Shown: positions 1,935 to 37,563, counted from the first letter of the stretch. The stretch is 38,888 nucleotides of DNA from Bacteroidota bacterium (GCA_040007375.1 JBDTVD010000002.1:1-38888); one strand, 5' to 3'. Program-made: numbers and translations. Notes: a model not told the origin generated them from the letters alone.

Positions 1935-2031
1935 CGTGCAATTATGATAAAAAAATAAAAAAATGAATTATAATTAATTTGAATGCAAATTGATAAATTT
2001 AAAAATTTTCAGAGGTAATTATATATATAAA

Positions 2032-2973
2032 TTATCTGGTAAATGAAAATCCGTTTGATGCTAACTCTTCAATTACTTTTGAAATTCCAGGTTCCAATTC
2101 TGTTGTATGTTTCCAGCCTAATGAATGAAGTTTTGAAACATCTAAAAGTTTACGCGGAGTTCCATCCGGTTTAGTGGAATCAAATTTAAGTTCACCATTA
2201 AATCCGATAATTTTCTTAACCAGCATTGCAAGATCTTTAATGGAAATGTCTACTCCGGTTCCGATATTAACGTGTTCCTGGCCATCGTAATTCTGCATCA
2301 GGTAATATGCTGCATCAGCAAGGTCGTCAACATATAAAAACTCCCTTTTAGGAGAACCGGTGCCCCATATTTCAACAACAGGCTTACTCTCTTCAACTGC
2401 TTCTCTGAATTTTCTTATAAAAGCTGGGAGAACATGAGAATTCTGTAAATCATAATTATCATTTGGTCCGTATAAATTTGTGGGCATAGCAGAAATAAAA
2501 TTACACCCATACTGCCTTTTATAAGATTCACACATTTTTAATCCTGCAATTTTAGCAATTGCGTACGGTTCGTTTGTTTGCTCCAGAAATCCGGTCAATA
2601 GATATTCTTCCTTAATAGGTTGAGGGCACATCTTCGGATAAATACATGACGAACCAAGAAATAATAATTTAGTTACCTTATTTAGATAACTCGCATGAAT
2701 AACATTATTCTGAATCTGCAGATTGTCGTACAGAAATTCCGCACGGTATATATTGTTCGCAACAATGCCTCCTACTTTTGCGGCTGCCAGAAAAACATAT
2801 TCTGGTTTTGCATCTTCAAAAAAATCAAAAACTTCCTGTTGATTTCTTAAATCAACTTCACTGGAAGTCCTGCTTATAATATTATCAAATCCTTCAGTTT
2901 TCAACTTTCTTACAATGGCTGATCCAACCATTCCTCGATGTCCTGCAACATAAACCTTACTGTTCTTATTCAT
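2032..2973 (-). CDS. fcl: GDP-L-fucose synthase (GDP-4-keto-6-deoxy-D-mannose 3,5-epimerase/4-reductase)
   Basis: 313 aa with Rossmann N-terminus [13 protein letters not shown] and a YxxxK catalytic motif (YAIAKIAG). Overall pattern resembles Fcl/WcaG. It lies directly downstream of gmd on the same strand. Confidence 0.9.
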
Positions 2974-2984
2974 AATATAATAAA

Positions 2985-4103
2985 TCAGCTTTCATGATAA
3001 TTAATAATTGTATGACCACCTTCTTTAAGATATTTATCCCTTTTGAAAAGATCAATATCAGAAGCCACCATTTCTTTTACAATAGCAGCAAGATCATATT
3101 TCGGTTTCCAACCCAGCTTTTCATTTGCTTTGGCAGGATCTCCAATAAGAAGTTCTACTTCTGCAGGACGGTAATATTTTTTATCGATGGAAAGCACTTC
3201 CTGTCCGACAGGCAACTGGTACTCCGGATTTGAACACGATTTTACAACAGCCTTTTCATTTTCTTCTTTTCCTGAAAATTCCAGTTCTATTCCTGCTTCG
3301 CGGAAAGCCATAATTATAAAATCACGAACAGATGTTGTCACTCCTGTCGCCACAACAAAATCTTCCGGAACGTCCTGTTGTAACATCAGGTACATGGCCT
3401 CCACATAATCCTTGGCATGTCCCCAATCACGTTTTGCATCAATGTTTCCCATAAAAACTTTATCCTGGAGTTTAAGTGCAATCCTTGCAACAGCTCTTGT
3501 AATTTTCCGGGTAACAAATGTTTCTCCTCTCAAAGGAGATTCATGATTAAATAAAATTCCGTTTACTGCATACATATTATATGACTCCCGGTAATTGATC
3601 ATAATCCAGTAAGCATAAAGTTTAGCCACAGCATATGGTGAGCGTGGGTAAAAAGGTGTGGTTTCCCGCTGAGGAATTTCCTGCACAAGACCATATAATT
3701 CAGAAGTAGAAGCCTGGTATATTCTGCACTTCTCAGTCAGATTCAACATACGCACAGCTTCCAGTATCCTCAATGCACCAATCCCATCAGCATTAGCTGT
3801 GTATTCAGGAGAGTTGAAACTAACATGTACATGCGACATGGCACCAAGATTATATATCTCATCCGGTTGAACTTCATTAATAATGCGGATGATATTAACA
3901 GAGTCAGTCAGATCTCCATAATGAAGTTTGAAACGGACATCCTTCTCATGCATATCACTATAAAGGTGATCAACACGCTGAGTATTAAATAAAGAACTTC
4001 TCCTTTTAATACCATGCACCATATAACCTTTGCTTAGAAGCAGTTCAGCGAGATAGGCTCCATCCTGCCCGGTTATACCGGTTATTAAAGCTGTTTTCAT
4101 CAT
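2985..4103 (-). CDS. gmd: GDP-mannose 4,6-dehydratase
   Basis: 372 aa with [26 protein letters not shown] and [10 protein letters not shown], the canonical Gmd signature blocks. Paired with fcl. Confidence 0.95.
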
Positions 4104-6765: not shown

Positions 6766-8583
6766 ATGATTGAATTTAAAACAGCCGGTACGAACACCGA
6801 TCAGGATGCGATAGACAGGAGCGGCGCTTTACCTAAAGCAATTAAAAGTCTGGCATTACATCTCAGTGCTGCACAGAAAAAGCGCATGGGAGTGCAGATG
6901 TTATTGATTTTCGTTTCTGCTGTTCTGGATGTGTTCGGACTTGCTTCTATTCTTCCTATTGTACGTCTTGCGGGTGAGCCTGCTGTAATACACAGGCAAC
7001 CTGTATTAGAGTGGATTTATGTGAATCTGCATTTTGCAAGCGAAAAAAGTTTTCTTCTTTTTCTGATGATAGGTGTATTGGTGTTTTTTGTTCTGAAAAG
7101 TGCTTTCGGAATATTTGTAAACTGGTTGCAGGTGCGTTTTGCCGGAGGTGTTGCTATATATATTACGCAGCAGCAGTTTAAAAAGTATTTCAACCTGGAG
7201 TTCCACACTTTTACTTCTTTAAAAAGCAGTGTTGTAACGCATCATATAATTAATAACCCTGTTAGTTATGTAACATGGGTTGTTTTACCATTGATGTTGA
7301 TTATGTCGGAAGCAATTATTATTTTACTGATTGTTTGTGGTATTGCTTATTATGATTTTAAACTTTTTATTTTTATCATCTGCCTCATCGGTCCTGCTTC
7401 ATATATAATTTTTGCATTACTTAAAAACAGAAGCACACGCATTGGCCGTGAAATGAACCGGATATTTCCACTGGCATTAGGTACTTTATCTCAAACAATC
7501 AGTGGTTATATAGATATTGTTCTTGCCGATAAAACTACTTTTTACGAAAAAAGATTTCTTCGTCAGCAGGGTCATTATCAAAGACTAAGTATGATGGCTT
7601 ATCTGCAGAATCTGATTCCTATCCGCGCAAATGAACTCGTTGCATTATCTGGAATGGTGCTTATCTTTATATATGCCATTTTCCTTACTGATAATCAGCA
7701 ATCGGCACTGGTAATGGTAAGTTTGTTTGCGGCTGCGGCATATCGTTTAATGCCTTCCATCAACCGAATATTAAGTTCTCTGGTTTACATAAGAAAGAAT
7801 ATGGCGGCAATAGAAAATCTTTCTATGTACCGTGATGAACCGGGTTTAAAAAAGACAAAAATTCCGCAGGAAGAAATTACTTTTAATTCAAGCATTGAAC
7901 TCAGTAATCTCTATTACAGATTTCCGGGTAAAGAAAAATATGTGTTGAATGATATTGAGATCACTATAAGGAAAGGGGAGAAAATAGGTATTGTTGGCAG
8001 CTCCGGTTCCGGCAAAACCACACTTATGAATTTACTGCTGCGTTTTTATACGGAAGAAAAAGGTGGTATATATATCGACGGAAATAAAATCGGACCACAG
8101 CATCTTTCAGCATGGAGAAATAAAATCGGATATGTGAAGCAGGATATATTTCTTCTGGATGCATCCATACGTGAAAACATTGCTTTCGGTGAAGATTCAG
8201 CAGATGAAGCACGACTTCAGAATGCAGTTAAACAGGCATCACTGGAACAGTTAATTCAGTCTCTTCCGGAAGGACTGGAAACTCAAATTGGTGAACGCGG
8301 TTCTTTACTTTCAGGTGGTCAACGTCAACGGATAAGTATTGCACGCTCACTTTACAGAAATGCTGAGGTGCTTATATTTGATGAAGCCACAAGTGCTCTT
8401 GATACACAAACTGAACAGGAAGTAACAGAGGCTATAGATTCACTTTCAGAAGTACATAAAACAATTTTTATCATTGCTCACCGCGTTACCACTCTTAAGA
8501 ATTGTGATCGGATTTATGAATTGAAAGACGGAAAGGTAGAAGGAGTTTATTCATACAATGAGTTGATAGAAAAGGTGATTTAA
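6766..8583 (+). CDS. ABC exporter, fused permease/ATPase half-transporter (MsbA/PglK-like)
   Basis: 605 aa. The N-terminal half is a multi-helix transmembrane domain. The NBD has Walker A GSSGSGKTT, signature LSGGQRQR, Walker B LIFDEATSALD and H-loop IIAHR. The start is 3 nt after the wzc stop. Confidence 0.9.
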   Translation: MIEFKTAGTNTDQDAIDRSGALPKAIKSLALHLSAAQKKRMGVQMLLIFVSAVLDVFGLASILPIVRLAGEPAVIHRQPVLEWIYVNLHFASEKSFLLFLMIGVLVFFVLKSAFGIFVNWLQVRFAGGVAIYITQQQFKKYFNLEFHTFTSLKSSVVTHHIINNPVSYVTWVVLPLMLIMSEAIIILLIVCGIAYYDFKLFIFIICLIGPASYIIFALLKNRSTRIGREMNRIFPLALGTLSQTISGYIDIVLADKTTFYEKRFLRQQGHYQRLSMMAYLQNLIPIRANELVALSGMVLIFIYAIFLTDNQQSALVMVSLFAAAAYRLMPSINRILSSLVYIRKNMAAIENLSMYRDEPGLKKTKIPQEEITFNSSIELSNLYYRFPGKEKYVLNDIEITIRKGEKIGIVGSSGSGKTTLMNLLLRFYTEEKGGIYIDGNKIGPQHLSAWRNKIGYVKQDIFLLDASIRENIAFGEDSADEARLQNAVKQASLEQLIQSLPEGLETQIGERGSLLSGGQRQRISIARSLYRNAEVLIFDEATSALDTQTEQEVTEAIDSLSEVHKTIFIIAHRVTTLKNCDRIYELKDGKVEGVYSYNELIEKVI

Positions 8584-26140: not shown

Positions 26141-26168
26141 TTTACGATAGAAAAATGCTATTCGTAAA
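26141..26168. terminator. AT-rich hairpin between convergent genes (possible bidirectional terminator)
   Basis: tttacgatag-aaaaatg-ctattcgtaaa forms about 10 bp of stem with one bulged T. It sits between the GT2 stop (26079) and the beta-barrel gene stop (26194). There is no clean U-tract. Confidence 0.3.
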
Positions 26169-26192
26169 TTCGTACAGATTCGTATTTCGTAG
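26161..26192. repeat. Four TTCGTA units at 7-10 bp spacing
   Basis: ttcgtaaa ttcgtacaga ttcgtat ttcgtag. An inverted tacga lies just upstream at 26143-26147. Confidence 0.7.
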
Positions 26193-26193
26193 T

Positions 26194-27105
26194 TTACCAG
26201 CCTCCTTCCTTCGGAGCTTTATGTTTTTTCACGATGGTAAAAACGCGTGATATATTAAATCCAAAATGAATATCCCCTTTCTCCCACTTACCATCCGTTT
26301 CTGTTGTTAATACTCTTTCATTCATACCTAATGCATTGGTGAAGTGTAATTGAAATACGTGTCCTCCGGTTTCTATATCAACACCAAGAGATAATGGCAT
26401 TTGAATATTATCATTTAACTGGTTTGGCAACTGATAAAAATAATCTGCTGTTAATGCAAAACGTTTTGTCAGCTTCACTCTTGCTCCCACTCCAACGGAA
26501 TATATATCATGATTATCATCAGCAGTCTGTACAAGATTATTATGCACCATTGTGGGTGAAACCTGTAAAGAAAAAGCATCAGAGAATTTTCTTCCGATAA
26601 TCACCTGGTTAAAAAATGCCAGTCGTGAGGAATAATAATTAGTACGTTCCGGATCATCAAACTTCATCATGTTATCTGTCATCCCGGTTACCAGAACAAC
26701 AGAAAACGGAATAGCTTTTTCACCTGTCGACTGCCAGATCAAACGGTATTTTGCAAAAACATCCACTTCTTTTTTATAAGAACTTCTGCCAATACCAATC
26801 ATCAATCGCTTTGTAATACCATAATCAAAACCAATACGTATACGTGCTTCATCCAGACCGAATGCCTGATAAGAACCTGTGTTAACTCTACCGAAGCGAT
26901 GCAGTATCCGGAAATCAAGTACTCCGGCACCGAGAAATTCCAGCGACTGACTGCTGATCACACGCGTTGATTTAAACGCATTCTTCACATATTCCTTTGT
27001 TGGTTCATCCTTGCCCAGCTGATCCAGCAGATCCTTTTCCTGTGCATGAGCACTGTTGAAGGATGCAATAAGAAAAAGCAGTATATATATTAGTTGTTTA
27101 TTCAT
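26194..27105 (-). CDS. Outer-membrane beta-barrel protein, DUF5777-like
   Basis: Signal peptide MNKQLIYILLFLIASFNSAHAQ. Has an ILHRFGRVN motif and many alternating hydrophobic beta-strand-like segments (e.g. VFQLHFTNALG, IHFGFNISRVF). The family name is recalled from similar Bacteroidota proteins and was not searched. Confidence 0.5.
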   Translation of the reverse strand: MNKQLIYILLFLIASFNSAHAQEKDLLDQLGKDEPTKEYVKNAFKSTRVISSQSLEFLGAGVLDFRILHRFGRVNTGSYQAFGLDEARIRIGFDYGITKRLMIGIGRSSYKKEVDVFAKYRLIWQSTGEKAIPFSVVLVTGMTDNMMKFDDPERTNYYSSRLAFFNQVIIGRKFSDAFSLQVSPTMVHNNLVQTADDNHDIYSVGVGARVKLTKRFALTADYFYQLPNQLNDNIQMPLSLGVDIETGGHVFQLHFTNALGMNERVLTTETDGKWEKGDIHFGFNISRVFTIVKKHKAPKEGGW

Positions 27106-27115
27106 AAAGGTGGTG

Positions 27116-27670
27116 TTACAGGCTCATCTTTTCGTAAGCAGCAATGATATCAATTTTCACCGACTTGGAAATATTATCCTTCACCACATTAGGAACAACA
27201 ATATTATAGTCAGCCAGTAGAATTGTAAATGATGCTTTGCCTGTTGGCTTTCCTCCTTTCACTTCAATAGTTCCATCAGTTAAAACTTCTTTAGTAACTC
27301 CATGTAAAGTAAACTGACCCTTTAATTTTATTGGGTAAACACCGTCTTTCTGAAAATTAACAGCAGAAATATCATCAACTGTCCCTTTAAATGTTGACTT
27401 AGGATATTTATCTGACTCCACATAGTTTTCATTAAAGTGTTCCATCATTAATTCCTTTTCAAACTCAAATGCTTTTAACAACACTGCAAATTCCAACTGA
27501 CCGGTTTTTGTATCCAGCACACTGGTACCTTTTGTGTTTACCGCTTCAATATTCTCCATATCTGATTTTGAAAAAAAAGTAACCTTACCTGAACGGGTAA
27601 AAAATTTATCCTGCGCATTCACAGTAGCAGCAGCAAGCAACAGACAAACAACAACAACAATATTTTTCAT
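27116..27670 (-). CDS. YceI-family (polyisoprenoid/lipid-binding lipocalin-like) periplasmic protein
   Basis: Signal peptide MKNIVVVVCLLLAAATVNAQ. YceI blocks HFNENYVESDKYPKSTFKG and FTLHGVTKEV are present. Confidence 0.8.
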   Translation of the reverse strand: MKNIVVVVCLLLAAATVNAQDKFFTRSGKVTFFSKSDMENIEAVNTKGTSVLDTKTGQLEFAVLLKAFEFEKELMMEHFNENYVESDKYPKSTFKGTVDDISAVNFQKDGVYPIKLKGQFTLHGVTKEVLTDGTIEVKGGKPTGKASFTILLADYNIVVPNVVKDNISKSVKIDIIAAYEKMSL

Positions 27671-27694
27671 AGTATAAATTATTTTAGTATTTAT

Positions 27695-28096
27695 TTATTC
27701 AATTACACAACGTACCATCACCACATCCATCAGCATACCGGTACAAACGCCTTTTATTTTAATTTCATCTCCTGTCTTTAATGTCTTAACCTTAACATCA
27801 TCTGCTTCTATTTTACAGATCACACCAAACATATCCGATGCTGTTTTAAGAGTTACGATATTCAATCCATCTTCCACTGCAATATTGGTTACCACACCTG
27901 AAATAGAAATGATTTTATCAAGGTATTTTGCATTTGCTTTATTTTCATCTTTTGCAAATTCATTAAAAAGATCTTCCGACCGTATTCCAAGATCTGCACT
28001 TTTTGCAGCAGTACTTTTTACCGGTTTGTTGTAAAGATAAAAGCCAGTGATAGAACCCAGACAGGCAATCACTAAAAGGATTTTTACATATTTCAT
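27695..28096 (-). CDS. Membrane-anchored OB-fold protein (tRNA_anti-like family)
   Basis: 133 aa with N-terminal anchor MKYVKILLVIACLGSITGFYLY, then DLFNEFAKDENKANAKYLDKIISISGVVTNI...IVTLKT...VICKI...GDEIKIKGVCTG. This matches the pattern of the Bacteroidota tRNA_anti-like OB-fold family. Confidence 0.6.
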   Translation of the reverse strand: MKYVKILLVIACLGSITGFYLYNKPVKSTAAKSADLGIRSEDLFNEFAKDENKANAKYLDKIISISGVVTNIAVEDGLNIVTLKTASDMFGVICKIEADDVKVKTLKTGDEIKIKGVCTGMLMDVVMVRCVIE

Positions 28097-28113
28097 CTTG
28101 TTGTATTTTTAAT

Positions 28114-28467
28114 TTAATTATTCAATGAACCATTTTCAATCCATCGTTGAACAGCCAGTATATCACAGGCCGACATCGGTCCTGCAGGTGGCATATCCTT
28201 TTGCACAACTGCACGCGTCATGATCAATGCAGAATTAGCGGACACATTAGTATAATTTGTCAGATCCGGTGGATTTCCTCCAGCAACATGACAACCGGGA
28301 ATTGCACAGTTAGCCGACATAACAGGAGAAATCTTTGCAGCATAACCGGTAACTGTGGTATCACAATTTGCTGTTCCTCCATTACCAGGATATAATTCAT
28401 CAGCCACATCATAATAACATCCGCCAATCAGAACACAAGAACTCAGTATCAATATTAATTTTCTCAC
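28114..28467 (-). CDS. Lipoprotein with one PSCyt1-like (cytochrome-c-type) domain, non-canonical C-x4-CH motif
   Basis: Lipobox-like N-terminus MRKLILILSSCVLIGGC. The domain is ISPVMSANCAIPGCHVAGG...DMPPAGPMSACDILAVQRWIENGSLNN, with the pattern C..CH ... MPP ... WI..G. Confidence 0.5.
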   Translation of the reverse strand: MRKLILILSSCVLIGGCYYDVADELYPGNGGTANCDTTVTGYAAKISPVMSANCAIPGCHVAGGNPPDLTNYTNVSANSALIMTRAVVQKDMPPAGPMSACDILAVQRWIENGSLNN

Positions 28468-28497
28468 AGTATTATTTTTATGGCTAAGATAATTAAG

Positions 28498-29253
28498 TTA
28501 ATTGTTTTGTGTTCCTTCTGCTATCCAGTTTCGGATCACTCCAATTTCACATATTGATAACATAGCACTGTTCTTAGGCATCGGCGAATATCCTGTAAGA
28601 TGCTGTATCGTTCCCAACAGTTTTCCATTTGCAACCTGTGCAGCAACCGTAGCATAACTGTTTAATACTATTCCACCACCAGGATTAGCTCCTGAATGAC
28701 ATCCTTTACATTTATTATTTACAAGTGGTGTTACATCCGCAGTATAAGAAACAGTTGTTGAATCGCAGGTAGTGTTAGTACAGGAAAGATTTTGCGCACC
28801 CTGTTGTATCCAGGTTTGAATTAAATTTATCTGTTGTGATGTTAATGGTGAATTGGGTGCTGGTGGCATTCTATCATCAGGATCATTTGTAGTAAGTACT
28901 TCCATTAAATCACCTGCTGAAGGACGGAATGGTTCTACGTCTGCAGTGTTCATTACGTTTATATATGAATCGAGAATTATTCCTTCTTCATGTGATGCTG
29001 CATCATGACAACCACTTTTTGCACAGTTGGAAACCAGTAATGGCAAAACCTGTGAATTGAAATAAACTGTTCCCGGATCGCAGGAAGTACCGTTATTTCC
29101 GTTATTATTATTTCCGTTATTAGTGTTATTGTTATCCGTTCCTGTAGAAACAGAAGGTAACATCGGAAGATCATGTTTACAGGAAGTAATGAAAAGCAAT
29201 ACCAATATAATTACCACCATCAAACCTGCTTCCCTTGCTCCTGTTAATTTCAT
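28498..29253 (-). CDS. Lipoprotein with two tandem PSCyt1-like domains behind an Asn-rich linker
   Basis: The track start 29277 is a TTG. ATG 29253 gives MKLTGAREAGLMVVIILVLLFITSC (lipobox). Linker is TDNNNTNNGNNNNGNNGTS. Domain 1 is VLPLLVSNCAKSGCHDAASHEEG...RMPPAPNSPLTSQQINLIQTWIQQGAQN. Domain 2 is VTPLVNNKCKGCHSGANPGGG...SPMPKNSAMLSICEIGVIRNWIAEGTQNN, with a canonical CxxCH. Confidence 0.55.
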   Translation of the reverse strand: MKLTGAREAGLMVVIILVLLFITSCKHDLPMLPSVSTGTDNNNTNNGNNNNGNNGTSCDPGTVYFNSQVLPLLVSNCAKSGCHDAASHEEGIILDSYINVMNTADVEPFRPSAGDLMEVLTTNDPDDRMPPAPNSPLTSQQINLIQTWIQQGAQNLSCTNTTCDSTTVSYTADVTPLVNNKCKGCHSGANPGGGIVLNSYATVAAQVANGKLLGTIQHLTGYSPMPKNSAMLSICEIGVIRNWIAEGTQNN

Positions 29254-29260
29254 ATCAAAG

Positions 29261-29268
29261 CAAAAGTA
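29261..29268 (-). promoter_or_regulatory. Bacteroidota -7 box candidate (TACTTTTG) ahead of the PSCyt-like lipoprotein genes
   Basis: Exact TAnnTTTG on the minus strand, 7 nt upstream of ATG 29253, near the only sizeable gap (85 bp) of the eight-gene cluster. It would imply a very short or absent leader. Confidence 0.3.
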
Positions 29269-29362
29269 CTGTGACAAACAGAAGCTTCCCGACGAAATTA
29301 GCTGAATGAGAAAAACTACCTTCTGAGTTGGTACTATCCTTTCACACCATAATTTACAGTAA

Positions 29363-30124
29363 TCAGATTTCTTTCTTTCCTGTAAGCCATTCTTTAAAAT
29401 GAGGCGAGCGGTCAGTACTTACAATCGTCTCTATTTCAGATGCTGGTTTCAGTAAAATTTTCACTCGTGATTTACTCCATGCCAGCATTTTTTCTATGGA
29501 TGCAATGTTCACTATGAATTGTCTGTTGATGCGGAAAAATTCAGCAGGATCAACCAGTTGTTCCAGTTCATCAAGATTAAAATCTACAGGATAACGAAGA
29601 CTTTGATACGTACATAAATAATTAATTTTATCTTCTGTATAAAAATAGGCAACGTCTTTTACCTCTACCATTTTAATATTCTCACCAAACCTAATGATGA
29701 TTCTTTTCTGATAATCTTTTCTTCCATCCAGCAACTGATTAATGATCTTACTCATATCAGAAGATTCCGGTTTCATTCGTTTATACTTATCCAGTGCATT
29801 GCGCAGATCATCCTTTTTAACAGGCTTCAATATATAATCAATGCTGTTTACTTTAAATGCATCAATGGCATACTGATCAAATGCTGTTACAAAAATTATC
29901 GGACAGGTAATATTTATCTTTTTAAATATTTCAAAACTCGATCCGTCGGAAAGATTAATATCCATAAAAACGAGATCAGGCATTTTATTATCATTAAACC
30001 ATTTTATGGATGCATTTACAGAATTTAATGTTGCAATAATTTCTGCAGATGGTTCCATTTCACTGATCATGCGTATTAATCGTTCTGCAGCCAGTTCTTC
30101 GTCTTCAATAATAAGTGTTTTCAT
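29363..30124 (-). CDS. LytR/AlgR-family response regulator (receiver + LytTR DNA-binding domain)
   Basis: Receiver domain: MKTLIIEDEE...DLVFMDINLSDGSSFEIF...IIFVTAF. C-terminal LytTR domain: FFRINRQFIVNIASIEKM. Confidence 0.9.
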   Translation of the reverse strand: MKTLIIEDEELAAERLIRMISEMEPSAEIIATLNSVNASIKWFNDNKMPDLVFMDINLSDGSSFEIFKKINITCPIIFVTAFDQYAIDAFKVNSIDYILKPVKKDDLRNALDKYKRMKPESSDMSKIINQLLDGRKDYQKRIIIRFGENIKMVEVKDVAYFYTEDKINYLCTYQSLRYPVDFNLDELEQLVDPAEFFRINRQFIVNIASIEKMLAWSKSRVKILLKPASEIETIVSTDRSPHFKEWLTGKKEI

Positions 30125-30131
30125 AGTTTTT

Positions 30132-33026
30132 TTAAATTAAGGGAATTGTTATGGAGAAAAAATCCTGATCATAAGAGATCAATACTTTTTCTGTACTGAG
30201 TATTTTATAACGGTTAATGATATTCTGCAATCCTATGCCAGTAGAAATCTCCGGTGTAAGTTTAACATTTATATTATTTTTTACTGTGATGGCATTACCG
30301 CTTGCCTGAAATACTTCCACTGTTAACGGTGTTTCCCTGGATACTGCATTATGCTTTATGGCATTTTCAATGAGCAGTTGCAATGATAAAGGAGGAACTT
30401 TTCCACTGTCGAGCAACTTTTCACTCAGATTGATCTGCAACCTCAGATGTTCACCAAAACGTTTTTTCTGAAGATAGTAATATGTCTTCACCATTTCTAT
30501 TTCATCACGCAACATGATGGTTTCCTTTTCACGATGCTGAATCATATTGCGGAAATAATCAGAAAGTTTTTCTACATATTCAATCGCAACATCTTTATCT
30601 TTTTCGATGATAGCAATCAATGTATTAAAACTATTAAAAAGAAAATGCGGATTCACCTGACTCTTTAATGTTTCAAAACGATACTCAACACTTTCCTTTT
30701 TCAATGCTTCAATTCCTTTCAATCGCTTATCACGGTTTCTGATGATAATAATTCCGGCAATAATAATAAGGACAATAACAGAAGTGATAAACCAGTTTTC
30801 TTTCCATGCCGGTTTTCTGATGAAGAAACTATAGTCTGTAGTTTCAGAAACGGTGAAGCTCGGACTTAACGATGCCCTCACTTTAAAATCATATTTCCCG
30901 GGAGGAAGATTAGGAAAAACTACCTGTTTATCAGATGTTGAAATCCAGTTGGAGTTATATCCTTCGAGCATGTACTGGTAATTAATCCTTGCAGGATCAG
31001 TGTACCAGATGCCGGTAAAATCAAAAACAAAACTATTCTGGTTATAGGCAAACTCATGCTTTGAAACCTGGTTGTGCCTGCTTCCAATAAGTGTAACATT
31101 ACTTAACACTACTTCCGGTCCGGCAGGATTTATATTTAATATCGGATTATATATAACAATTCCTTTTTCAGTTCCAATCCATACGCTGCCTGACTGATCA
31201 ACAGTAATAGAATTCAGATCAGGATTTATTTCCGACAGATTATTTTCTGCACCATAGAAATCAATTTTACCGGTTGATGTATGCAGTATGTCAATACCCT
31301 TTTTATGCACCATCACAATCCTGTCGAATGATACATATTTCAAAGCAGTAATGGTAAGCTCTCTCAACCCCTCTGCTTTTCCATAATTATGAAAAGTACG
31401 ACCATCAAACCTGCAGATTCCTTCGCCGGGAGTGCTGAACCATATTGCTCCTTTATTATCTTCCGTTATGCTGTAAACGGTGTTGCTTCTTAATCCCTGT
31501 TCTGTAGAATAATTATAATACTTTCCGTTGGTATAACAGGTCAATCCTTTTTTATCCGTTCCAAACCATACTCTGTTGCGTGAATCGACAAAAACGGTAT
31601 ATATATAAAAGTTTCCAAGTGTTGCTTCTGTGTCTAGTTTAGTTATCTCCACATCTGGTTTATCTGTTAAACAGGATCCTTTGATCTTACAATAAAATGC
31701 ACCACCAAATGTAGCCAGCCATACTTCATCACCACTTCCATCAATAGATAAAATACTGGCATCATTCAGATCCGGATTACTGATGCGTTGTACAGTTCCT
31801 GTTATTGTATTAAGCCGGAATAAACCACCACCCATTGTACCAACCCACAGATACCCGCATTCGTCTTCATACAGACTTACAATATCAATTAAACTTGTAC
31901 CGGCAGTAATGGTATAATGCCTGATGTTACCACCTTTTGTATTGAAACTAAGCAGTCCCTGATCAGGAGTGAGATATATATCATTCGATCCACTGCAGTA
32001 AACGGTGTGTACATAATTAATTTTTTCTTTACCTATAGCATTCATAAAAGTAAGCCAGTGACTATGTGAACGAATGAGTCCTGTACCGGAAGCCATCCAG
32101 AGATTTTCTTCCGGATCGGAAATAACTTTTCTGATATCGTTAAAAGTAAATTCACCATAACCGGAATAATTAATCAGTGAAGAAGATGCTGTCATATCTA
32201 AATAAAATACACCGGATCCTTCTGTTCCTAACCACAATTCATTTTTATTAAAATATATATCCAGAACAGGACCATGTTTCCAGTTACGGCTCCATTGCGG
32301 CATTTCAATTCTTTTTTCCTGCATTATATATCTGCACACACCGCTATCCTGTAATCCTATCCATATGTTTCCGTTTTTATCTTTTGTGAGATCTCGTATA
32401 ATAACATCAGGAAGCTGCTTATTAAAATTTAAAGCAGCTACTTTATAGGAAGCGCTATCTTTTATGAGCAACGTAATTCCCTGGTCAGTGCCGATCCATA
32501 TCCTTCCGGTATTATCTTCTTCAACAGTATAACAATAATCATCCTTAAGGCCTTCATTCATTCCAAAATGCCGGAGATGTTTGCCTTGAAAAATATATAC
32601 ACCATCACCACCTGTAGTAAACCACAATACACCATTATGATCTTCAAACACAGAAGTAATTTTATCTTTCGGTTTCATTTCTGAAACAAGTGATGTCAAT
32701 CCTGAATCTGTAACAAATGCAATAGTGCCGGAATTATAACCTGTCCAAACAATGCCTTTACTGTCAGTAAAAACTGCTGTTGCTTCATCAGGAGTTCCGG
32801 ATGATTTTAGAGCGAAAGAAATATAATCTGTTCCGTTATATTTTAACAACCCTTCTGTTGATGCCAGCCACAAAATTCTGTTAGTATCAATACTGAGGGA
32901 ATTAAATCCGAGGTTCAGGTTCTCGCGGTTTACAATCACCTGCTTAAAAAAAGGCGTCTGCGAATATGCAGATGAAACCTCCACAATCATATATAATAAA
33001 AAGAGCCGGTAAAATTTTTGTTTCAT
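30132..33026 (-). CDS. Sensor histidine kinase with periplasmic two-component-regulator propeller repeats + Y_Y_Y domain and a LytS-type (His_kinase) transmitter
   Basis: 964 aa with signal peptide MKQKFYRLFLLYMIVEVSSAYSQ. It has many Reg_prop-like repeats (G.LW.GT..GL..Y). The Y_Y_Y region is INYQYMLEGYNSNW...PPGKYDFKVRA. One TM helix (WFITSVIVLIIIAGIIII) is followed by the H-box NPHFLFNSFNTL and an ATPase region (LIENAIKHN...GIGLQNI). Confidence 0.9.
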   Translation of the reverse strand: MKQKFYRLFLLYMIVEVSSAYSQTPFFKQVIVNRENLNLGFNSLSIDTNRILWLASTEGLLKYNGTDYISFALKSSGTPDEATAVFTDSKGIVWTGYNSGTIAFVTDSGLTSLVSEMKPKDKITSVFEDHNGVLWFTTGGDGVYIFQGKHLRHFGMNEGLKDDYCYTVEEDNTGRIWIGTDQGITLLIKDSASYKVAALNFNKQLPDVIIRDLTKDKNGNIWIGLQDSGVCRYIMQEKRIEMPQWSRNWKHGPVLDIYFNKNELWLGTEGSGVFYLDMTASSSLINYSGYGEFTFNDIRKVISDPEENLWMASGTGLIRSHSHWLTFMNAIGKEKINYVHTVYCSGSNDIYLTPDQGLLSFNTKGGNIRHYTITAGTSLIDIVSLYEDECGYLWVGTMGGGLFRLNTITGTVQRISNPDLNDASILSIDGSGDEVWLATFGGAFYCKIKGSCLTDKPDVEITKLDTEATLGNFYIYTVFVDSRNRVWFGTDKKGLTCYTNGKYYNYSTEQGLRSNTVYSITEDNKGAIWFSTPGEGICRFDGRTFHNYGKAEGLRELTITALKYVSFDRIVMVHKKGIDILHTSTGKIDFYGAENNLSEINPDLNSITVDQSGSVWIGTEKGIVIYNPILNINPAGPEVVLSNVTLIGSRHNQVSKHEFAYNQNSFVFDFTGIWYTDPARINYQYMLEGYNSNWISTSDKQVVFPNLPPGKYDFKVRASLSPSFTVSETTDYSFFIRKPAWKENWFITSVIVLIIIAGIIIIRNRDKRLKGIEALKKESVEYRFETLKSQVNPHFLFNSFNTLIAIIEKDKDVAIEYVEKLSDYFRNMIQHREKETIMLRDEIEMVKTYYYLQKKRFGEHLRLQINLSEKLLDSGKVPPLSLQLLIENAIKHNAVSRETPLTVEVFQASGNAITVKNNINVKLTPEISTGIGLQNIINRYKILSTEKVLISYDQDFFSITIPLI

Positions 33027-33044
33027 GGAGTTGCTCCGGCGGAT

Positions 33045-33593
33045 TTATTTCTTCTTAAGTGCTGCTTTAATTTCAATCTTTATTTCGGAAGCTATTTTTT
33101 CATGCACAACTTTTGGCACTCTGATGTTATGGTCTTTCAGTGATACAGTAAAATTCGACTCCAGTTCCACACCATCTTTACCTGTAGTAAGCTGTGCTCT
33201 TATGATTCTTTCTTTTACAATACCATGCACCGTAAGTAATCCTTTTGCTCTTACCTGGTAAACACCGGGCACATTAAAATCAACTTCTTCAATAATTTTT
33301 CCTTTAAATGAAGTCAATGGATAAATATCTGATTCCATATAGTTTTCATTAAAATGTACACGCTGCAGGGAATTGTTAAATCCCTGGAAGGAACTGTTAA
33401 GCACCGTAAATACAAATGTTCTTTTTTCCTGATCAATAACTCCCTGCATCCTGGATGACTCCGCAGAAATCACTTCCAATGGCGCTTCAGAGCGGAATTT
33501 TACCGAAGAAGTGGTAACATAAAATAAGTTCGATTCCGAACCGGGAAAAATAATAGCCAGGCAAGCAATAATGGTAACCAGAAATAACTTCAT
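33045..33593 (-). CDS. YceI-family periplasmic protein (paralogue of 27116..27670)
   Basis: The track start 33623 is a TTG inside a TATCTTTG promoter-like box. ATG 33593 gives MKLFLVTIIACLAIIFPG (signal/anchor). Blocks HFNENYMESDIYPLTSFKG and LTVHGIVKE align with the other YceI gene. Confidence 0.75.
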   Translation of the reverse strand: MKLFLVTIIACLAIIFPGSESNLFYVTTSSVKFRSEAPLEVISAESSRMQGVIDQEKRTFVFTVLNSSFQGFNNSLQRVHFNENYMESDIYPLTSFKGKIIEEVDFNVPGVYQVRAKGLLTVHGIVKERIIRAQLTTGKDGVELESNFTVSLKDHNIRVPKVVHEKIASEIKIEIKAALKKK

Positions 33594-33620
33594 CCGGCAA
33601 TAATTATCTTCAACATTTAA

Positions 33621-33628
33621 CAAAGATA
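33621..33628 (-). promoter_or_regulatory. Bacteroidota -7 box candidate (TATCTTTG = TAnnTTTG) for the YceI-kinase-regulator genes
   Basis: Exact match to the TAnnTTTG consensus on the minus strand, 27 nt upstream of ATG 33593, in the divergent intergenic region shared with cysC. Confidence 0.35.
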
Positions 33629-33737: not shown

Positions 33738-34331
33738 ATGTCAACAAACATAGTAAGGCAACACTACAAAATCAGCAAGGACGACAGGCTGAAATCGTTA
33801 AACCAGAAACCACTTATTGTATGGCTTACAGGACTTTCCGGTTCCGGGAAATCCACTATAAGCGACAGGCTGGAACAGATTCTTCAGGAAAAAGGTTTTA
33901 AAACCTACCTGCTTGATGGTGATAATATAAGGCATGGGCTTAATAAGGATATCGACTTCAGTGAAGCCGGAAGGAAGGAGAATATCCGTCGTATTGGTGA
34001 GGTGGCCCGCCTTTTTATAGATGCCGGAATTATTGTTATCACTGCATTTATTTCCCCTTTTCGCGAGGACAGGAGTTTTGTACGCGGACTGGTTGGTGAA
34101 CAGGAATTCCTGGAGGTTTTCGTAAGTTGCCCGATTGAAGTGTGTGAAGCACGTGATGTAAAAGGGCTTTATGCAAAAGCACGGAAAGGAGAGATCCCTG
34201 CCTTCACCGGAATCAGTTCTCCCTTTGAAGAACCGGTGCAGGCTGAGGTAATAGTGCAATCCGATTTGCTGGATATTGAACAATGTGCAAACAAAATATT
34301 TGAAGAAGCGTATAAAAGAATCAAAGTATAA
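33738..34331 (+). CDS. cysC: Adenylyl-sulfate (APS) kinase
   Basis: 197 aa with P-loop WLTGLSGSGKSTI, LDGDNIRHGLN and FISPFREDR. Confidence 0.9.
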   Translation: MSTNIVRQHYKISKDDRLKSLNQKPLIVWLTGLSGSGKSTISDRLEQILQEKGFKTYLLDGDNIRHGLNKDIDFSEAGRKENIRRIGEVARLFIDAGIIVITAFISPFREDRSFVRGLVGEQEFLEVFVSCPIEVCEARDVKGLYAKARKGEIPAFTGISSPFEEPVQAEVIVQSDLLDIEQCANKIFEEAYKRIKV

Positions 34332-35242
34332 TGGAAATGATCCTCTACAATCTAAATCACCTTCGCTCACTGGAAGCTGAGGCAATATATATTATCCGTG
34401 AAACGGCAGCACAGTTTGATCGCCCGGCATTGTTATTCAGTGGTGGTAAAGACTCCATCGTGATGGCACATCTTGCAAGAAAAGCATTTTATCCTGCCCG
34501 TATTCCTTTCCCTTTTTTACATGTTGATACAGGACATAATTTTCCTGAAACAATTGAGTTTCGTGATCAGCTTGTTGAAAAAACCGGAGCACAGTTAATT
34601 GTTCGTTATGTTCAGGATAGTATTGATAAAGGAAGAGCAAAAGAAGAAAAAGGACCGAATTCAAGTCGTAATGTTTTGCAGACTGTAACATTACTTGATG
34701 CATTGGAAGAACTGAAAGTTGATGCAGCATTAGGTGGTGCACGTCGTGATGAAGAGAAAGCAAGAGCTAAAGAAAGATTCTTTTCACATCGTGATGAATT
34801 CGGACAGTGGGATCCAAAGAATCAGCGTCCTGAATTATGGAATTTATTAAATGGCCGTAAAAATGTAGGTGAGCATTTCCGAGTGTTTCCATTAAGTAAC
34901 TGGACAGAAATGGATGTTTGGCAATATATAAAGCTGGAGAAGCTGGATATACCAACCATCTACTTCACACATCGCAGAGATTGCGTAGATCGTGATGGAA
35001 TGATATTATATGTTTCAGATTTTATTACTGTAAGAGCAGGAGAAGAAATCAGCAACCGTGTGGTGCGTTACCGTACAGTGGGTGATATGACCTGTACTGG
35101 TGCTGTTGAATCCCTTGCATCATCCATCGATGAAATTATTGATGAAATAGCAACCAGCAGAACAACAGAACGCGGAACAAGATCAGATGATAAGAGAAGT
35201 GAAACTGCAATGGAAGACAGAAAGAAAGCAGGATACTTTTAA
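34331..35242 (+). CDS. cysD: Sulfate adenylyltransferase subunit 2
   Basis: 303 aa with LESEAI-like LEAEAIYIIRE, PP-loop LFSGGKDSIVM, and RVFPLSNWTEMDVWQYI. The ATG overlaps the cysC stop (TAATG). Confidence 0.95.
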   Translation: MEMILYNLNHLRSLEAEAIYIIRETAAQFDRPALLFSGGKDSIVMAHLARKAFYPARIPFPFLHVDTGHNFPETIEFRDQLVEKTGAQLIVRYVQDSIDKGRAKEEKGPNSSRNVLQTVTLLDALEELKVDAALGGARRDEEKARAKERFFSHRDEFGQWDPKNQRPELWNLLNGRKNVGEHFRVFPLSNWTEMDVWQYIKLEKLDIPTIYFTHRRDCVDRDGMILYVSDFITVRAGEEISNRVVRYRTVGDMTCTGAVESLASSIDEIIDEIATSRTTERGTRSDDKRSETAMEDRKKAGYF

Positions 35243-35286
35243 ATTATAAATTCTAAATTATAGATTATAAATTATTTCTCAGCGAA
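35241..35286. repeat. 46-nt AT-rich direct repeat, copy 1 (cysD-cysN spacer)
   Basis: aaattataaattctaaattatagattataaattatttctcagcgaa. Identical at 42 of 46 positions to 35331-35376, exactly 90 bp downstream. Confidence 0.9.
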
Positions 35287-35330
35287 CTCATAAACACTGT
35301 TAGCTCTGCGTGAAAAAAAAAATAAAATAG

Positions 35331-35376
35331 AAATTATAAATTCAAGATTATAAATTAGAAATTATTTCTCAGCGAA
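35331..35376. repeat. 46-nt AT-rich direct repeat, copy 2
   Basis: aaattataaattcaagattataaattagaaattatttctcagcgaa. Mismatches to copy 1 occur only at repeat positions 14, 16, 23 and 28. Both copies are followed by a g(c/g)gtgaaaaa tail. Confidence 0.9.
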
Positions 35377-35415
35377 ATTTCGGGTGAAAAATAATATATA
35401 TAAAAGTTTGACAAA

Positions 35416-35446
35416 ATCGTAATTCATAAATCGTAAATCGTAAATC
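35416..35446. repeat. Heptamer tandem repeat (atcgtaa)n ending 3 nt before the cysN ATG
   Basis: atcgtaa ttcataa atcgtaa atcgtaa atc: four units in phase (one degenerate) plus a partial fifth. Confidence 0.8.
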
Positions 35447-35449
35447 AAA

Positions 35450-36724
35450 ATGAGTAATTTCAGCCAGGAGGGTTATCTGAATATGGAACTGTTACGTTTC
35501 ACCACTGCAGGAAGTGTGGATGATGGTAAGAGTACTTTGATAGGAAGATTATTGTACGATAGTAAATCCATTTTTGAAGATCAGCTCGAAGCAGTAAGAA
35601 GAACCAGTGTACAAAAAGGTTTTGAGCATGTGGATTTAAGTCTGTTGACTGACGGTCTTCGTGCGGAGCGTGAACAGGGAATTACTATTGATGTTGCTTA
35701 TCGTTATTTTGCAACACCACGTCGTAAATTTATTATAGCGGATACTCCTGGTCACATTCAATATACACGTAACATGGTAACAGGTGCAAGTACTGCAAAT
35801 GTTGCTTTGATTTTAGTTGATGCCCGTAAAGGTGTACTAGAGCAAACAATACGTCATTCATTTATTGCAGCATTACTTCAGATTCCTCACTTAATTATTT
35901 GCGTGAACAAAATGGATCTTGTTGATTATAGTGAAGAGCGATATTGGGAAGTAGTTGAAGAATATAAAAAGCTTTCTTCAAAACTGGAAATTAAAGATGT
36001 AACGTTTTTACCAATCAGTGCATTGCATGGTGACAATGTAGTTGATAAGTCAACCAACATGAACTGGTATCATGGAACAACATTAATGTATCTGTTAGAA
36101 AACATACACATCAGCAGCGATGAAAATCATATTGACTGCCGTTTTCCTGTTCAGTATGTTATCCGTCCTCAGCAAAAAGAATATCATGATTACAGAGGAT
36201 ATGCAGGACGTATTGCCAGCGGAATTTTTAAACCGGGTGATAAAATAAAAGTATTGCCAAACAGCGAAACTGCAGTAATTAAAAGCATCGAATTATTCGG
36301 TGAGCAGATAACTGAAGCCTTTGCACCGATGTCGGTTACCATGACACTTGACCGAGATGTAGATATCAGTCGCGGTGATATGCTTGTGCGTGAAAACAAT
36401 GTTCCGCACTCGGAAAGTGAATTTGATGTAATGATATGCTGGTTGAATTCCGGCAAGATGGAGTTGGGTGGAAAGTATGCTATCAAGCACACAACAAAAG
36501 AAGCACGCTGCATAATAAAAGACATTCGTTATAAAGTTGATATAAATACCCTGCATCGGAATGAAATTGATAAAAGCATCGGCATGAATGACATTGCACG
36601 TGTTACATTAAAAACAACAGTTCCACTTCATTTCGATCCATACCGTAAAAACAGAATTACAGGAAGTATTATTTTAATTGATGAAGGAACAAATGAAACC
36701 GTAGGTGCAGGTATGATCGTATAA
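35450..36724 (+). CDS. cysN: Sulfate adenylyltransferase subunit 1 (GTPase), without a fused APS-kinase domain
   Basis: 424 aa with G1 AGSVDDGKST, G3 DTPGH and G4 NKMD. Overall EF-Tu-like CysN layout. Confidence 0.9.
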   Translation: MSNFSQEGYLNMELLRFTTAGSVDDGKSTLIGRLLYDSKSIFEDQLEAVRRTSVQKGFEHVDLSLLTDGLRAEREQGITIDVAYRYFATPRRKFIIADTPGHIQYTRNMVTGASTANVALILVDARKGVLEQTIRHSFIAALLQIPHLIICVNKMDLVDYSEERYWEVVEEYKKLSSKLEIKDVTFLPISALHGDNVVDKSTNMNWYHGTTLMYLLENIHISSDENHIDCRFPVQYVIRPQQKEYHDYRGYAGRIASGIFKPGDKIKVLPNSETAVIKSIELFGEQITEAFAPMSVTMTLDRDVDISRGDMLVRENNVPHSESEFDVMICWLNSGKMELGGKYAIKHTTKEARCIIKDIRYKVDINTLHRNEIDKSIGMNDIARVTLKTTVPLHFDPYRKNRITGSIILIDEGTNETVGAGMIV

Positions 36725-36741
36725 AAGGTAAAACAAACACC

Positions 36742-37563
36742 ATGGAAAACTATCATCCTTATCTTTCACTTGCATTGAAGGCTGCAATAATGGCCGGCAA
36801 AGAAATTAAATCTGTTTATGCCAGTGGTAATTTTAATGTGGAACAGAAAGATGATAAAAGTCCTTTAACAGAAGCTGATAAACGTTCACATAAAAAGATT
36901 GCAGATATATTAAGTGAATCCACACTTCCTGTTTTAAGTGAAGAAGGAAAAGCAATTGATTTCGATGAAAGAAGTCACTGGAAATTATTCTGGATGGTGG
37001 ATCCATTGGATGGAACAAAAGAATTTATCAAACGCAATGGTGAGTTTACAGTCAATATTGCACTCATCAGAAGTGGTGAACCTATTTTAGGAGTTATTTA
37101 TGCTCCTGTAATTGATACATTATATTTCGGATGCGAGGATACAGGAAGCTATAAACTGGAAGCTGATGAAGAATATCTTTCACATCTTATGTTAGCACAA
37201 CATGCTGCTGACCGTATCATGCAGGCGGCAACAAAACTTCCGATAAAATATGAACAGAAAGCATTTACCGTTGTTGCAAGCAGAAGTCATATGAGCCCTG
37301 AAACGGAAGCATATATAGAAGACCTGCGTAAACAACATGGTGAAGTGGAACTGATCAGCAAAGGAAGTTCACTTAAATTATGTTTGGTTGCAGAAGGAAG
37401 TGCACAGGTATATCCACGTTTTGCTCCAACTATGGAATGGGATACTGCAGCAGGACAGGCCATTGCAAAGTATGCAGGATTTAATGTAGTAAATGCTGTG
37501 GATCATCAGCCTGTTATATATAATAAGTCAGAATTACTCAATCCCTGGTTTATTGTAGGTTGA
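36742..37563 (+). CDS. cysQ: 3'(2'),5'-bisphosphate nucleotidase (PAP phosphatase)
   Basis: 273 aa with inositol-monophosphatase-fold motifs WMVDPLDGTKEF and WDTAAGQAI. Located directly after cysN. Confidence 0.85.
   Translation: MENYHPYLSLALKAAIMAGKEIKSVYASGNFNVEQKDDKSPLTEADKRSHKKIADILSESTLPVLSEEGKAIDFDERSHWKLFWMVDPLDGTKEFIKRNGEFTVNIALIRSGEPILGVIYAPVIDTLYFGCEDTGSYKLEADEEYLSHLMLAQHAADRIMQAATKLPIKYEQKAFTVVASRSHMSPETEAYIEDLRKQHGEVELISKGSSLKLCLVAEGSAQVYPRFAPTMEWDTAAGQAIAKYAGFNVVNAVDHQPVIYNKSELLNPWFIVG

Follow-up and report, generated by a model that had tools for sequence, protein, structure and literature searches.

The closest described systems in which YceI-like proteins meet heme proteins outside the cytoplasm are Cbp2D of Cellvibrio, which carries a ubiquinone-8-binding YceI-like domain together with two c-type cytochrome domains (PMC8981238, PMC12542752), and the YceJ-YceI pair of Shewanella, for which an electron relay has been proposed (PMC8981235). 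Here we describe a locus of eight genes in a stretch of 38,888 nucleotides from a Bacteroidota bacterium (GCA_040007375.1 JBDTVD010000002.1:1-38888; the whole stretch is called the window below). The genes lie on the minus strand between positions 26194 and 33623 and encode two YceI proteins, a sensor kinase and a LytTR-type regulator, two predicted cytochrome c lipoproteins, an OB-fold protein and an outer-membrane beta-barrel of the DUF5777 family. Judged by their conservation in other genomes, the eight genes are a real, widely conserved and undescribed unit of Bacteroidota. The region consists of a five-gene core operon (the two cytochromes, the OB-fold protein, one YceI protein and the barrel) and a separable three-gene sensory triad (the other YceI protein, the kinase and the regulator), joined by a common operator. 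The best explanation that we can offer for the whole is an inducible module of envelope electron transfer, a reading that we hold tentatively, at a little less than an even chance.

Cbp2D and Cbp2E of Cellvibrio japonicus and Saccharophagus X158 share with the module the combination of extracytoplasmic YceI-like domains and c-type domains with a single CXXCH; extracytoplasmic electron transfer has been proposed for Cbp2D/E, whose YceI-like domain binds ubiquinone-8 or polyisoprenoids (PMC8981238, PMC12542752). Cbp2D differs, however, in being one secreted multidomain protein with CBM2 and FN3 domains, gammaproteobacterial and linked to cellulose and lytic polysaccharide monooxygenases, whereas in the module the domains are separate genes, accompanied by genes for an outer-membrane barrel, an OB-fold protein and a dedicated sensor. 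A Pfam search gave no CBM or FN3 match in any of the eight proteins. The gene pair yceJ-yceI of Proteobacteria and the lipocalins BcnA/BcnB of Burkholderia (PDB 5ixg) resemble the module in that a YceI protein is paired with an envelope heme protein, and we confirmed that yceJ and yceI are adjacent in E. coli, with a gap of 3 base pairs (bp). The partner in yceJ-yceI is an inner-membrane cytochrome b561, whereas the partners in the module are predicted c-type lipoproteins and an outer-membrane barrel; no b561 match was found in the eight proteins or in the flanking genes that were scanned. An initial annotation of the window, made from its sequence, had pointed to E. coli for a precedent of pairing YceI with heme proteins. 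The precedent is correct, but the pair that proves invariant in this module is that of cytochrome and barrel.

Barrels that are genetically coupled to c-type cytochromes, as in the module, are also found in the Cyc2, MtrCAB and PioAB systems. We found no sequence relationship between the module and these systems; unlike Cyc2 and MtrB, its barrel is free of cysteine and has about 12 predicted strands, and its cytochromes are predicted monoheme lipoprotein domains rather than multiheme wires. To our knowledge, YceI and OB-fold partners are not known in Cyc2, MtrCAB or PioAB systems. The regulatory genes share with the LytSR/BtsSR/AgrCA class a PF06580 kinase, a receiver-LytTR regulator and 9-bp repeats with a 12-bp spacer, but the sensor differs from those of LytS and BtsS in having a large periplasmic double propeller plus Y_Y_Y instead of 5TM-Lyt, and the triad differs from LytS-class systems in the YceI gene that is always attached upstream of the kinase. 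Since the module does not show the defining features of Cyc2/MtrAB, of Cbp2D/E, of yceJ-yceI or of canonical LytS, its likeness to them is one of functional resemblance and not of membership. The initial annotation had found a match to no characterised system, and this holds: Pfam and NCBIfam place the proteins in none (the NCBIfam scan of the eight proteins gave nothing specific), and the literature that we searched contained neither a mention of DUF5777 or PF19089 nor work on the combinations of YceI with tRNA_anti-like or of YceI with LytTR.

The features of the locus are as follows, in order along the window:

26194..27105, minus strand: DUF5777 outer-membrane beta-barrel (gene 8); Pfam PF19089, 315 bits, covering profile positions 1-247 of 247
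27116..27670, minus strand: YceI-b (gene 7), the predicted lipocalin-type ligand binder of the core; Pfam YceI, 54.1 bits against a cut-off of 23.7
27695..28096, minus strand: OB-fold protein, tRNA_anti-like (gene 6); Pfam PF12869, 92.4 bits
28114..28467, minus strand: predicted one-domain class-I cytochrome c lipoprotein (gene 5), 117 residues; heme motif CAIPGCH (CX4CH)
28498..29253 (maximal frame to 29277), minus strand: predicted two-domain class-I cytochrome c lipoprotein (gene 4), 259 residues in the maximal frame; PSCyt1, 35.4 bits
29261..29268, minus strand: TACTTTTG, a promoter-like -7 element, 7 nucleotides before the likely ATG of gene 4
29302..29331, minus strand: putative LytTR operator CCAACTCAG-N12-CTCATTCAG, two 9-bp direct repeats with starts 21 bp apart
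29363..30124, minus strand: response regulator (gene 3); Pfam Response_reg, 56.6 bits, and LytTR, 65.6 bits
30132..33026, minus strand: sensor histidine kinase (gene 2); Pfam Reg_prop, 112 bits, Y_Y_Y, 51 bits, and His_kinase PF06580, 80.2 bits
33045..33593 (maximal frame to 33623), minus strand: YceI-a (gene 1), first gene of the triad; Pfam YceI PF04264, 34.3 bits against a cut-off of 23.7

The eight open reading frames (ORFs) are all present where the initial annotation had placed them, and the intergenic gaps, from gene 1 to gene 8, are 18, 7, 85, 30, 17, 24 and 10 bp, in agreement with its range of 7-85 bp. The maximal frames of genes 1 and 4 are probably over-extended at their starts. 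For gene 1 the ATG at 33593 (MKLFLV...) is more likely than a start at 33623, and for gene 4 the ATG at 29253 (MKLTGARE...) is more likely than one at 29277; with the latter choice the gap between regulator and cytochrome becomes 109 bp. Pfam reproduced the earlier assignment of both YceI proteins, of the propeller/Y_Y_Y kinase, of the LytTR regulator and of the OB-fold protein. Each of the six non-regulatory products bears a signal peptide, a lipobox or an anchor helix, as read from the sequence and, for gene 6, from an AlphaFold2 (AF2) model, which agrees with the earlier view that all six are exported: signal peptides are found in genes 7 (cleavage at VNA/QD) and 8 (AHA/QE), lipoboxes in genes 4 (FITSC) and 5 (LIGGC), both with the Cys kept in orthologues, and a helix in gene 6.

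The window proteins were mapped onto 80 loci carrying DUF5777 in a collection of one genome per species (designated L plus a number below), and all ORFs of these loci were clustered; the 80 are the best barrel matches, and related genomes among them are not independent observations. Sixty-six of the 80 have at least 3 kb of sequence upstream of the barrel. There, on the same strand, a cytochrome gene is found in every locus (66/66), YceI in 58, the OB-fold gene in 55 and all of them in 54, and most loci keep on one strand the order two-domain cytochrome, one-domain cytochrome, OB-fold protein, YceI, barrel. The loci span Chitinophagaceae, Saprospiraceae, Lewinellaceae, Cytophagales, Flavobacteriales, environmental Bacteroidales, Ignavibacteriae and Kapaibacterium, and the core set recurs while the flanking genes vary between lineages. 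The complete arrangement is present in a cultured strain, Adhaeribacter terreus CGMCC 1.6961 (L032). Minimal forms with only cytochrome and barrel occur in L037, L038, L062, L065, L083 and the locus of the protein P0161 (see below), which makes the cytochrome/barrel pair the invariant heart of the module. The initial annotation had called for a gene-neighbourhood comparison across Bacteroidota and had regarded the eight genes as one self-contained block. The comparison bears out a set that is kept, in conserved order, among differing flanks and across Bacteroidota orders; what is kept, however, is a five-gene core plus a separable triad rather than a single eight-gene block.

The conserved residues of the cytochromes support a redox character of the module. 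Gene 4 has the heme motifs CAKSGCH (CX4CH) and, in its second domain, CKGCH (CXXCH), and among its orthologues the succession of CX4CH and CXXCH is found in 52 of 54, along with conservation of the lipobox Cys, the heme motifs, the MP motif and a W..G..NN signature. For the small cytochromes, CXXCH (52 orthologues) and CX4CH (18 orthologues) occupy one and the same place in the alignment (the counts for both proteins are drawn from 83 related loci), and the residues of gene 5 that are invariant in orthologues are C17, C35, C54, C59, H60, M92, P93 and W109. The profile of gene 5 orthologues matches, over its full length, the solved cytochromes c6, QcrC (of bc1) and CcoP, with E values from 4e-5 to 1e-3. 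All three domains had been called PSCyt1-like in the initial annotation; only domain 1 of gene 4 passes the PSCyt1 cut-off (35.4 against 22 bits), but conserved motifs in orthologues, and for gene 5 also the profile, point to class-I cytochrome c. Scores for Cytochrome_CBB3, whose cut-off is 27, are 21.5 for domain 2 of gene 4 and 14.9 for gene 5. The heme-attachment Cys...Cys-His and a distal Met-Pro are invariant or nearly so in all three domains, in line with the redox character that had been suggested for the module. Because of this conservation of motifs in orthologues and of the match to class-I cytochrome c profiles, the two lipoproteins would between them offer three c-heme sites of the His/Met type, which we expect to be loaded with heme. 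Some lineages have the large cytochrome expanded to four heme domains. One of these is L050, where a gene for a cytochrome with eight CXXCH motifs and TPR and HEAT repeats (1596-3839, minus strand) lies immediately upstream of the core. A further trait of the small cytochromes is an acidic motif, CYYD.EE.LYP, right after the lipidated Cys, which might be a surface-export signal of Bacteroidota.

The barrel is the most conserved protein of the module, with identities in tblastn of 48-68%, against 39-71% (mostly 40-57%) for the YceI protein of the core, mostly 30-50% for the cytochromes and mostly 25-45% for the OB-fold protein. In 20 barrel sequences of 57-88% identity, 81 columns are invariant, and the conservation of DUF5777 is unusually high for an outer-membrane protein. 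Conserved residues stand at both ends of the strands, which suggests that the protein is constrained on either side of the membrane. His69, His188, His249 and His254 of the barrel are candidate residues for binding a cofactor non-covalently. The initial annotation had recognised the right family but had called the protein DUF5777-like, and with 315 bits to PF19089 it is a full member. Its AF2 model has moderate confidence (a predicted local distance difference test, pLDDT, of 70) and about 12 strands, and Foldseek matched it only to generic barrels of 12-14 strands (FapF, OmpG, NanC) with a template-modelling (TM) score of about 0.47; the barrel sequence gave nothing useful when searched against solved structures. 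Two identities considered for the barrel were rejected. With zero cysteines, and hence no CXXCH, it is not a member of Cyc2, and channels for hydrophobic compounds of the FadL/TodX type were found only among low-ranking Foldseek matches, with TM scores of about 0.3. The family is large, with 2307 clusters at 50% identity and more than 8000 scored clusters at 90% identity, and in the species-representative genome set DUF5777 relatives are encoded by at least 595 stretches. One relative, P0121 (615 residues), has the DUF5777 barrel duplicated in tandem within a single polypeptide.

Between cytochromes and barrel lie the OB-fold protein and YceI-b. The AF2 model of gene 6 (pLDDT 83) shows an N-terminal helix at residues 2-23 followed by a five-strand OB fold, and its conserved cysteines are Cys94 and Cys118 (and Cys130). 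The top Foldseek match of this model is 3f1z, a structural-genomics protein of unknown function, which the OB orthologue profile also matched weakly in a sequence search of solved structures, where the single sequence of gene 6 had no match; the model resembles in addition the anticodon-binding OB folds of aminoacyl-tRNA synthetases. A heme chaperone like CcmE and a metal chaperone like CusF were considered for gene 6 and rejected, as neither CcmE nor CusF is among the 50 Foldseek matches listed. YceI-b resembles, weakly and at the level of sequence, the solved YceI proteins 3hpe and 5ixg, and has 34% identity with the YceI-a of the triad.

The three genes of the triad were found in about 20 loci, invariably all together; about 13 loci have them upstream of the core, and in L047, L056 and L061 they follow it. 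In every triad locus where that side is available, YceI-a lies directly upstream of the kinase, and because of this fixed position it is best read as a ligand-binding co-sensor, likely periplasmic. The kinase has a periplasmic Reg_prop propeller plus Y_Y_Y, followed by a LytS-type His_kinase core, and Pfam found no multi-pass 5TM-Lyt sensor domain in it (E <= 0.1); its orthologues are 24-37% identical over their full length. An NCBIfam match of the kinase to PorZ, of 84 bits against a cut-off of 260, is attributed to shared propeller repeats. The regulator stays below the cut-offs of the NCBIfam LytR and BtsR equivalogs (101 and 97 bits against 375 and 246), and the presence of both a PF06580 kinase core and a receiver-LytTR regulator is that of a LytS/LytTR two-component system. 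A search in the reverse direction, starting from the kinase, was dominated by paralogues matching the kinase core only. Among its matches were five relatives that align over their full length with at least 28% identity; four of them have enough flanking DNA, and all four (L087, L089, L090 and L091) have YceI-a upstream and the core nearby.

What joins triad and core is the operator. Alignment of the spacers between regulator and cytochrome gave a repeat consensus, CCCGTTCAG; the arrangement described for binding sites of LytTR regulators, AgrA-type sites among them, is likewise one of two repeats separated by 12 bp. Within the 38.9 kb of the window the operator, at 22.3 bits, stands alone, as no other site exceeds 13 bits. 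A scan with the matrix over 1.34 Mb of loci found 34 sites of at least 21 bits, against 0-3 in shuffles that preserved base composition only, and 27 of the 34 are within 450 bp upstream of the first gene of a core. The operator stands ahead of the core in 23 loci; since the matrix itself was made from sites of this class, the independent check is given by the 13 of these loci that lie outside the matrix-building set. In L064 a site precedes YceI-a, and sites occur too in loci with no regulator within 10 kb. Because a conserved direct-repeat operator precedes the first cytochrome gene, control of core expression by the adjacent LytTR system, as the initial annotation had proposed, is very probable, and would be exerted through binding of the regulator at these repeats. 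With the operator consensus, the regulon can be reconstructed wherever a genome has the triad. Downstream of the operator, TACTTTTG presumably represents the -7 element of Bacteroidota promoters (TAnnTTTG). Where the triad lies downstream of the core, an extra operator is found 3' of the regulator gene (L047, position 15270; L056, 15185; L061, 11405), and in L047 and L061 it precedes a gene for an extracytoplasmic function (ECF) sigma factor, which hints at a regulatory cascade.

In several relatives the core is accompanied by genes for surface proteins. Six loci encode a 'choice-of-anchor V' protein with an N-terminal CXXCH or CX4CH and a sorting tail of the type IX secretion system (T9SS), with its gene between those of the OB-fold protein and YceI in L005 and L007-L009 (in L009, at 7066-7908, inside the core) and beside the core in L033 and L037. 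The protein P0161 (L084, 959-2329; L085, 540-1910) has a 'choice-of-anchor V' domain with CXXCH joined to the N-terminal side of DUF5777, and two small cytochrome genes lie upstream. This domain weakly resembles the Reeler domain. Eukaryotic ferric-chelate reductase 1 contains a Reeler domain; a literature search for Reeler domains with bacteria and heme returned only papers on ticks and insects. Four loci of Saprospiraceae/Lewinellaceae (L053, L054, L057 and L081) have, beside the core, T9SS proteins that contain two to four copper domains of the plastocyanin type. The sequence upstream of these multi-cupredoxin genes is available for two of the four loci, L053 and L081, and in both the operator precedes them. 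The multi-cupredoxins of L053 (3580-7488) and L081 (166-4986) are giant proteins with PKD domains and the motif YYCIPHG.PGG.GM. The P0161 fusion and the co-regulated cupredoxins of these relatives parallel the set of barrel, cupredoxin and di-heme class-I cytochrome in the rus operon of Acidithiobacillus.

A different form is found in Chitinophagaceae (L011-L013, L019-L021, L023, L024, L026 and L030), where the core is preceded by an AraC-family gene and by a gene for a His/Cys-rich protein of 125-138 residues with no family match; the LytTR-type operator is missing from Chitinophagaceae loci with the upstream AraC regulator. L040 and some of these loci have, 3' of the core, genes for DUF6660, a TonB-dependent receptor, a di-heme peroxidase-like protein, DUF4920, a second receptor and an HmuY-like protein, and in Chitinophagaceae these downstream genes are co-directional and tightly packed with the core. 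A CzcA-type pump of the resistance-nodulation-division (RND) family lies within 10 kb in five loci. In L011 (6845-8887), and likewise in L012, L022, L028 and L030, there are proteins of about 520-680 residues with a cytochrome-like motif, C.GSGCH, encoded directly 3' of the barrel except in L028, where the gene is upstream of the core. The L011 protein has SprB-type repeats and carries the motif in a C-terminal cytochrome-like domain.

We regard an electron-transfer chain as the most economical account because the core is all exported, has three predicted c-heme sites and is accompanied in relatives by single-electron partners at the surface. In this chain, YceI-a would bind a lipophilic signal and present it to the kinase, and the phosphorylated regulator would bind the two CCCGTTCAG-like direct repeats and activate the core promoter. 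The lipoprotein cytochromes would then act as single-electron relays, with periplasmic carriers on one side and the barrel or the cell surface on the other; the barrel would be a docking site, anchor or conduit, and the YceI protein would hold a polyisoprenoid quinone or another lipophilic redox ligand, as a cofactor or as a shuttle. YceI would here take the place of the ubiquinone-8-binding domain that adjoins the c-type domains of Cbp2D (PMC8981238, PMC12542752), with a further parallel in the relay proposed for YceJ-YceI of Shewanella (PMC8981235). Overall the module would resemble a small porin-cytochrome system or an extracytoplasmic electron-transfer chain of the Cbp2D type, and its terminal substrate might be a metal ion (Fe, Cu) or a redox protein of the surface, for which relatives offer the T9SS cupredoxins and the CXXCH 'choice-of-anchor V' proteins as examples. 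The initial annotation had proposed that the module shuttles or redox-modifies a lipophilic ligand. A redox character of the module is supported by the conserved heme-motif residues, and the T9SS cupredoxins and the CXXCH barrel fusion of relatives point beyond lipid shuttling to electron transfer at the surface. A bolder version, which we consider improbable, would have the DUF5777 barrel, the monoheme lipoprotein cytochromes and a quinone-loaded YceI form a minimal conduit across the outer membrane, switched by a lipid-sensing triad and serving surface or metal partners. Such a conduit would need no multiheme cytochrome and would be widespread in Bacteroidota, Ignavibacteriae and relatives, a new route of extracellular electron transfer in a phylum not known for one.

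Several observations weigh against electron transfer as the function of the module. All functional statements rest on sequence and genomic context. Two of the three heme motifs of the window have the unusual CX4CH form. With no cysteine, the barrel would hold no covalent heme, and with about 12 strands at pLDDT 70 it would be too narrow to enclose a cytochrome in the manner of MtrB; its family, as said above, goes without mention in the literature searched. The module encodes no inner-membrane entry point of the b561 or quinol-dehydrogenase kind (Pfam, with the flanks scanned as well), and the electron-transfer account leaves the role of the OB-fold protein unexplained. The window has no genes for cupredoxins or 'choice-of-anchor V' proteins, so that the link to the surface rests on relatives. 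The operator is independently checked in 13 loci only, its matrix coming from the same class of sites, and the census of 80 loci, being made of the best barrel matches, is biased to closer relatives. Finally, the AraC, TonB, peroxidase-like, DUF4920 and HmuY-like neighbours in Chitinophagaceae would fit the acquisition of metal or heme at least as well.

Metal handling in the envelope is indeed one of the alternatives, in which Fe or Cu would change redox state at the outer membrane for uptake or detoxification, by reduction of Fe(III) or Cu(II) or by oxidation of Fe(II) or Cu(I), with ferric-chelate reductases and the Cyc2-rusticyanin-Cyc1 chain as analogues. It would account for the Chitinophagaceae cores packed with TonB receptors, HmuY-like, DUF6660, DUF4920 and di-heme peroxidase-like genes, with AraC and the His/Cys-rich protein upstream, for the nearby CzcA-type pumps, for the copper proteins under the same operator and for the weak likeness of 'choice-of-anchor V' to the Reeler domain of ferric-chelate reductase 1. 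The metal-linked neighbours are, however, limited to one family and so represent few independent events, no metal genes lie beside the module in the window and its closest relatives, and no recognised metal-binding family was matched in the core (Pfam, NCBIfam), which leaves metal handling an unlikely function. Trafficking of a lipophilic ligand, the leading idea of the initial annotation, seems to us equally doubtful. Here the barrel would act as a channel or lateral gate, YceI-b would ferry the cargo (an isoprenoid, a quinone, a fatty amide or a xenobiotic), the cytochromes would oxidise or reduce it, and YceI-a would report it to the kinase. The presence of two YceI paralogues, one of them tied to a sensor, speaks for such a role, as do the hydrophobic ligands bound by the solved relatives 3hpe and 5ixg, the ubiquinone-8 bound by a YceI-like domain (PMC8981238) and an inducible expression that would suit response to a substrate. 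A purely lipid-trafficking role is nevertheless weakened by the minimal forms, in which YceI is dispensable while the cytochrome is never missing (66/66). FadL/TodX-type channels also rank far below generic barrels in Foldseek, and neither the cupredoxins nor the CXXCH surface partners fit pure transport.

Defence against extracytoplasmic oxidants, with electrons of the cytochromes removing oxidants of the peroxide or superoxide type and the sensor answering to oxidised lipids, is a more remote alternative, which the initial annotation had also raised and which we rate as quite improbable. Some precedent comes from E. coli, where yceJ and yceI are confirmed neighbours and where CybB, a cytochrome b561 related to YceJ, has been described as a superoxide oxidase; in addition, a di-heme peroxidase-like gene lies 3' of the core in several Chitinophagaceae loci. 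That neighbour is lineage-restricted, though, and the conserved core has no peroxidase, superoxide dismutase or thiol-peroxidase domain (Pfam, NCBIfam); oxidant defence would also leave the barrel and the surface partners unexplained. That eight genes for unrelated exported proteins came together by chance, or through an artefact of annotation, is scarcely credible given a set and order conserved in 54 of 66 loci with varied flanks, a common operator ahead of the core and a barrel fused in a relative to a heme-motif domain.

Several orphan families become parts of a single testable system once the barrel is seen to be invariably coupled to c-type cytochrome lipoproteins, usually in the company of YceI and an OB-fold protein, and to be switched, very probably, through a defined operator. 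Bacteroidota are major degraders in soil, freshwater and wastewater. If the module does move electrons at the outer membrane, it would give these bacteria an envelope redox pathway for metal cycling, oxidative polymer breakdown or surface redox enzymes, and would supply a functional context for YceI proteins.

The surroundings of the module in the window are not related to it. Its GC content of 0.34-0.38 is similar to that of the flanks and gave no signal of horizontal transfer, and a generic scan for sigma-70 promoters and terminators, which is uninformative for Bacteroidota sequence, gave counts near those of shuffles. Several relatives have clear intrinsic terminators 3' of the barrel gene. 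At this place the window has instead four copies of TACGAA in 31 bp (26161-26191, minus strand), the first two bases past the barrel stop codon; the hexamer has 16 copies in the whole window, which is the chance expectation, with four of them in this cluster, and the cluster is not present in the relatives, where ordinary hairpin terminators are found. One border of the module is formed by a plus-strand exopolysaccharide/O-antigen cluster (2032-26079) that encodes a GDP-mannose dehydratase, a Wzz/tyrosine-kinase-like protein, an ABC exporter, MBOAT, Wzy, an asparagine synthase and glycosyltransferases. On the other side (33738-37563) lie cysC, cysD and cysN with a gene of the inositol-monophosphatase family, and the exopolysaccharide cluster and the cys genes together suggest a sulfated polysaccharide. 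The same exopolysaccharide and cys flanks are found in L005 and L007-L009.

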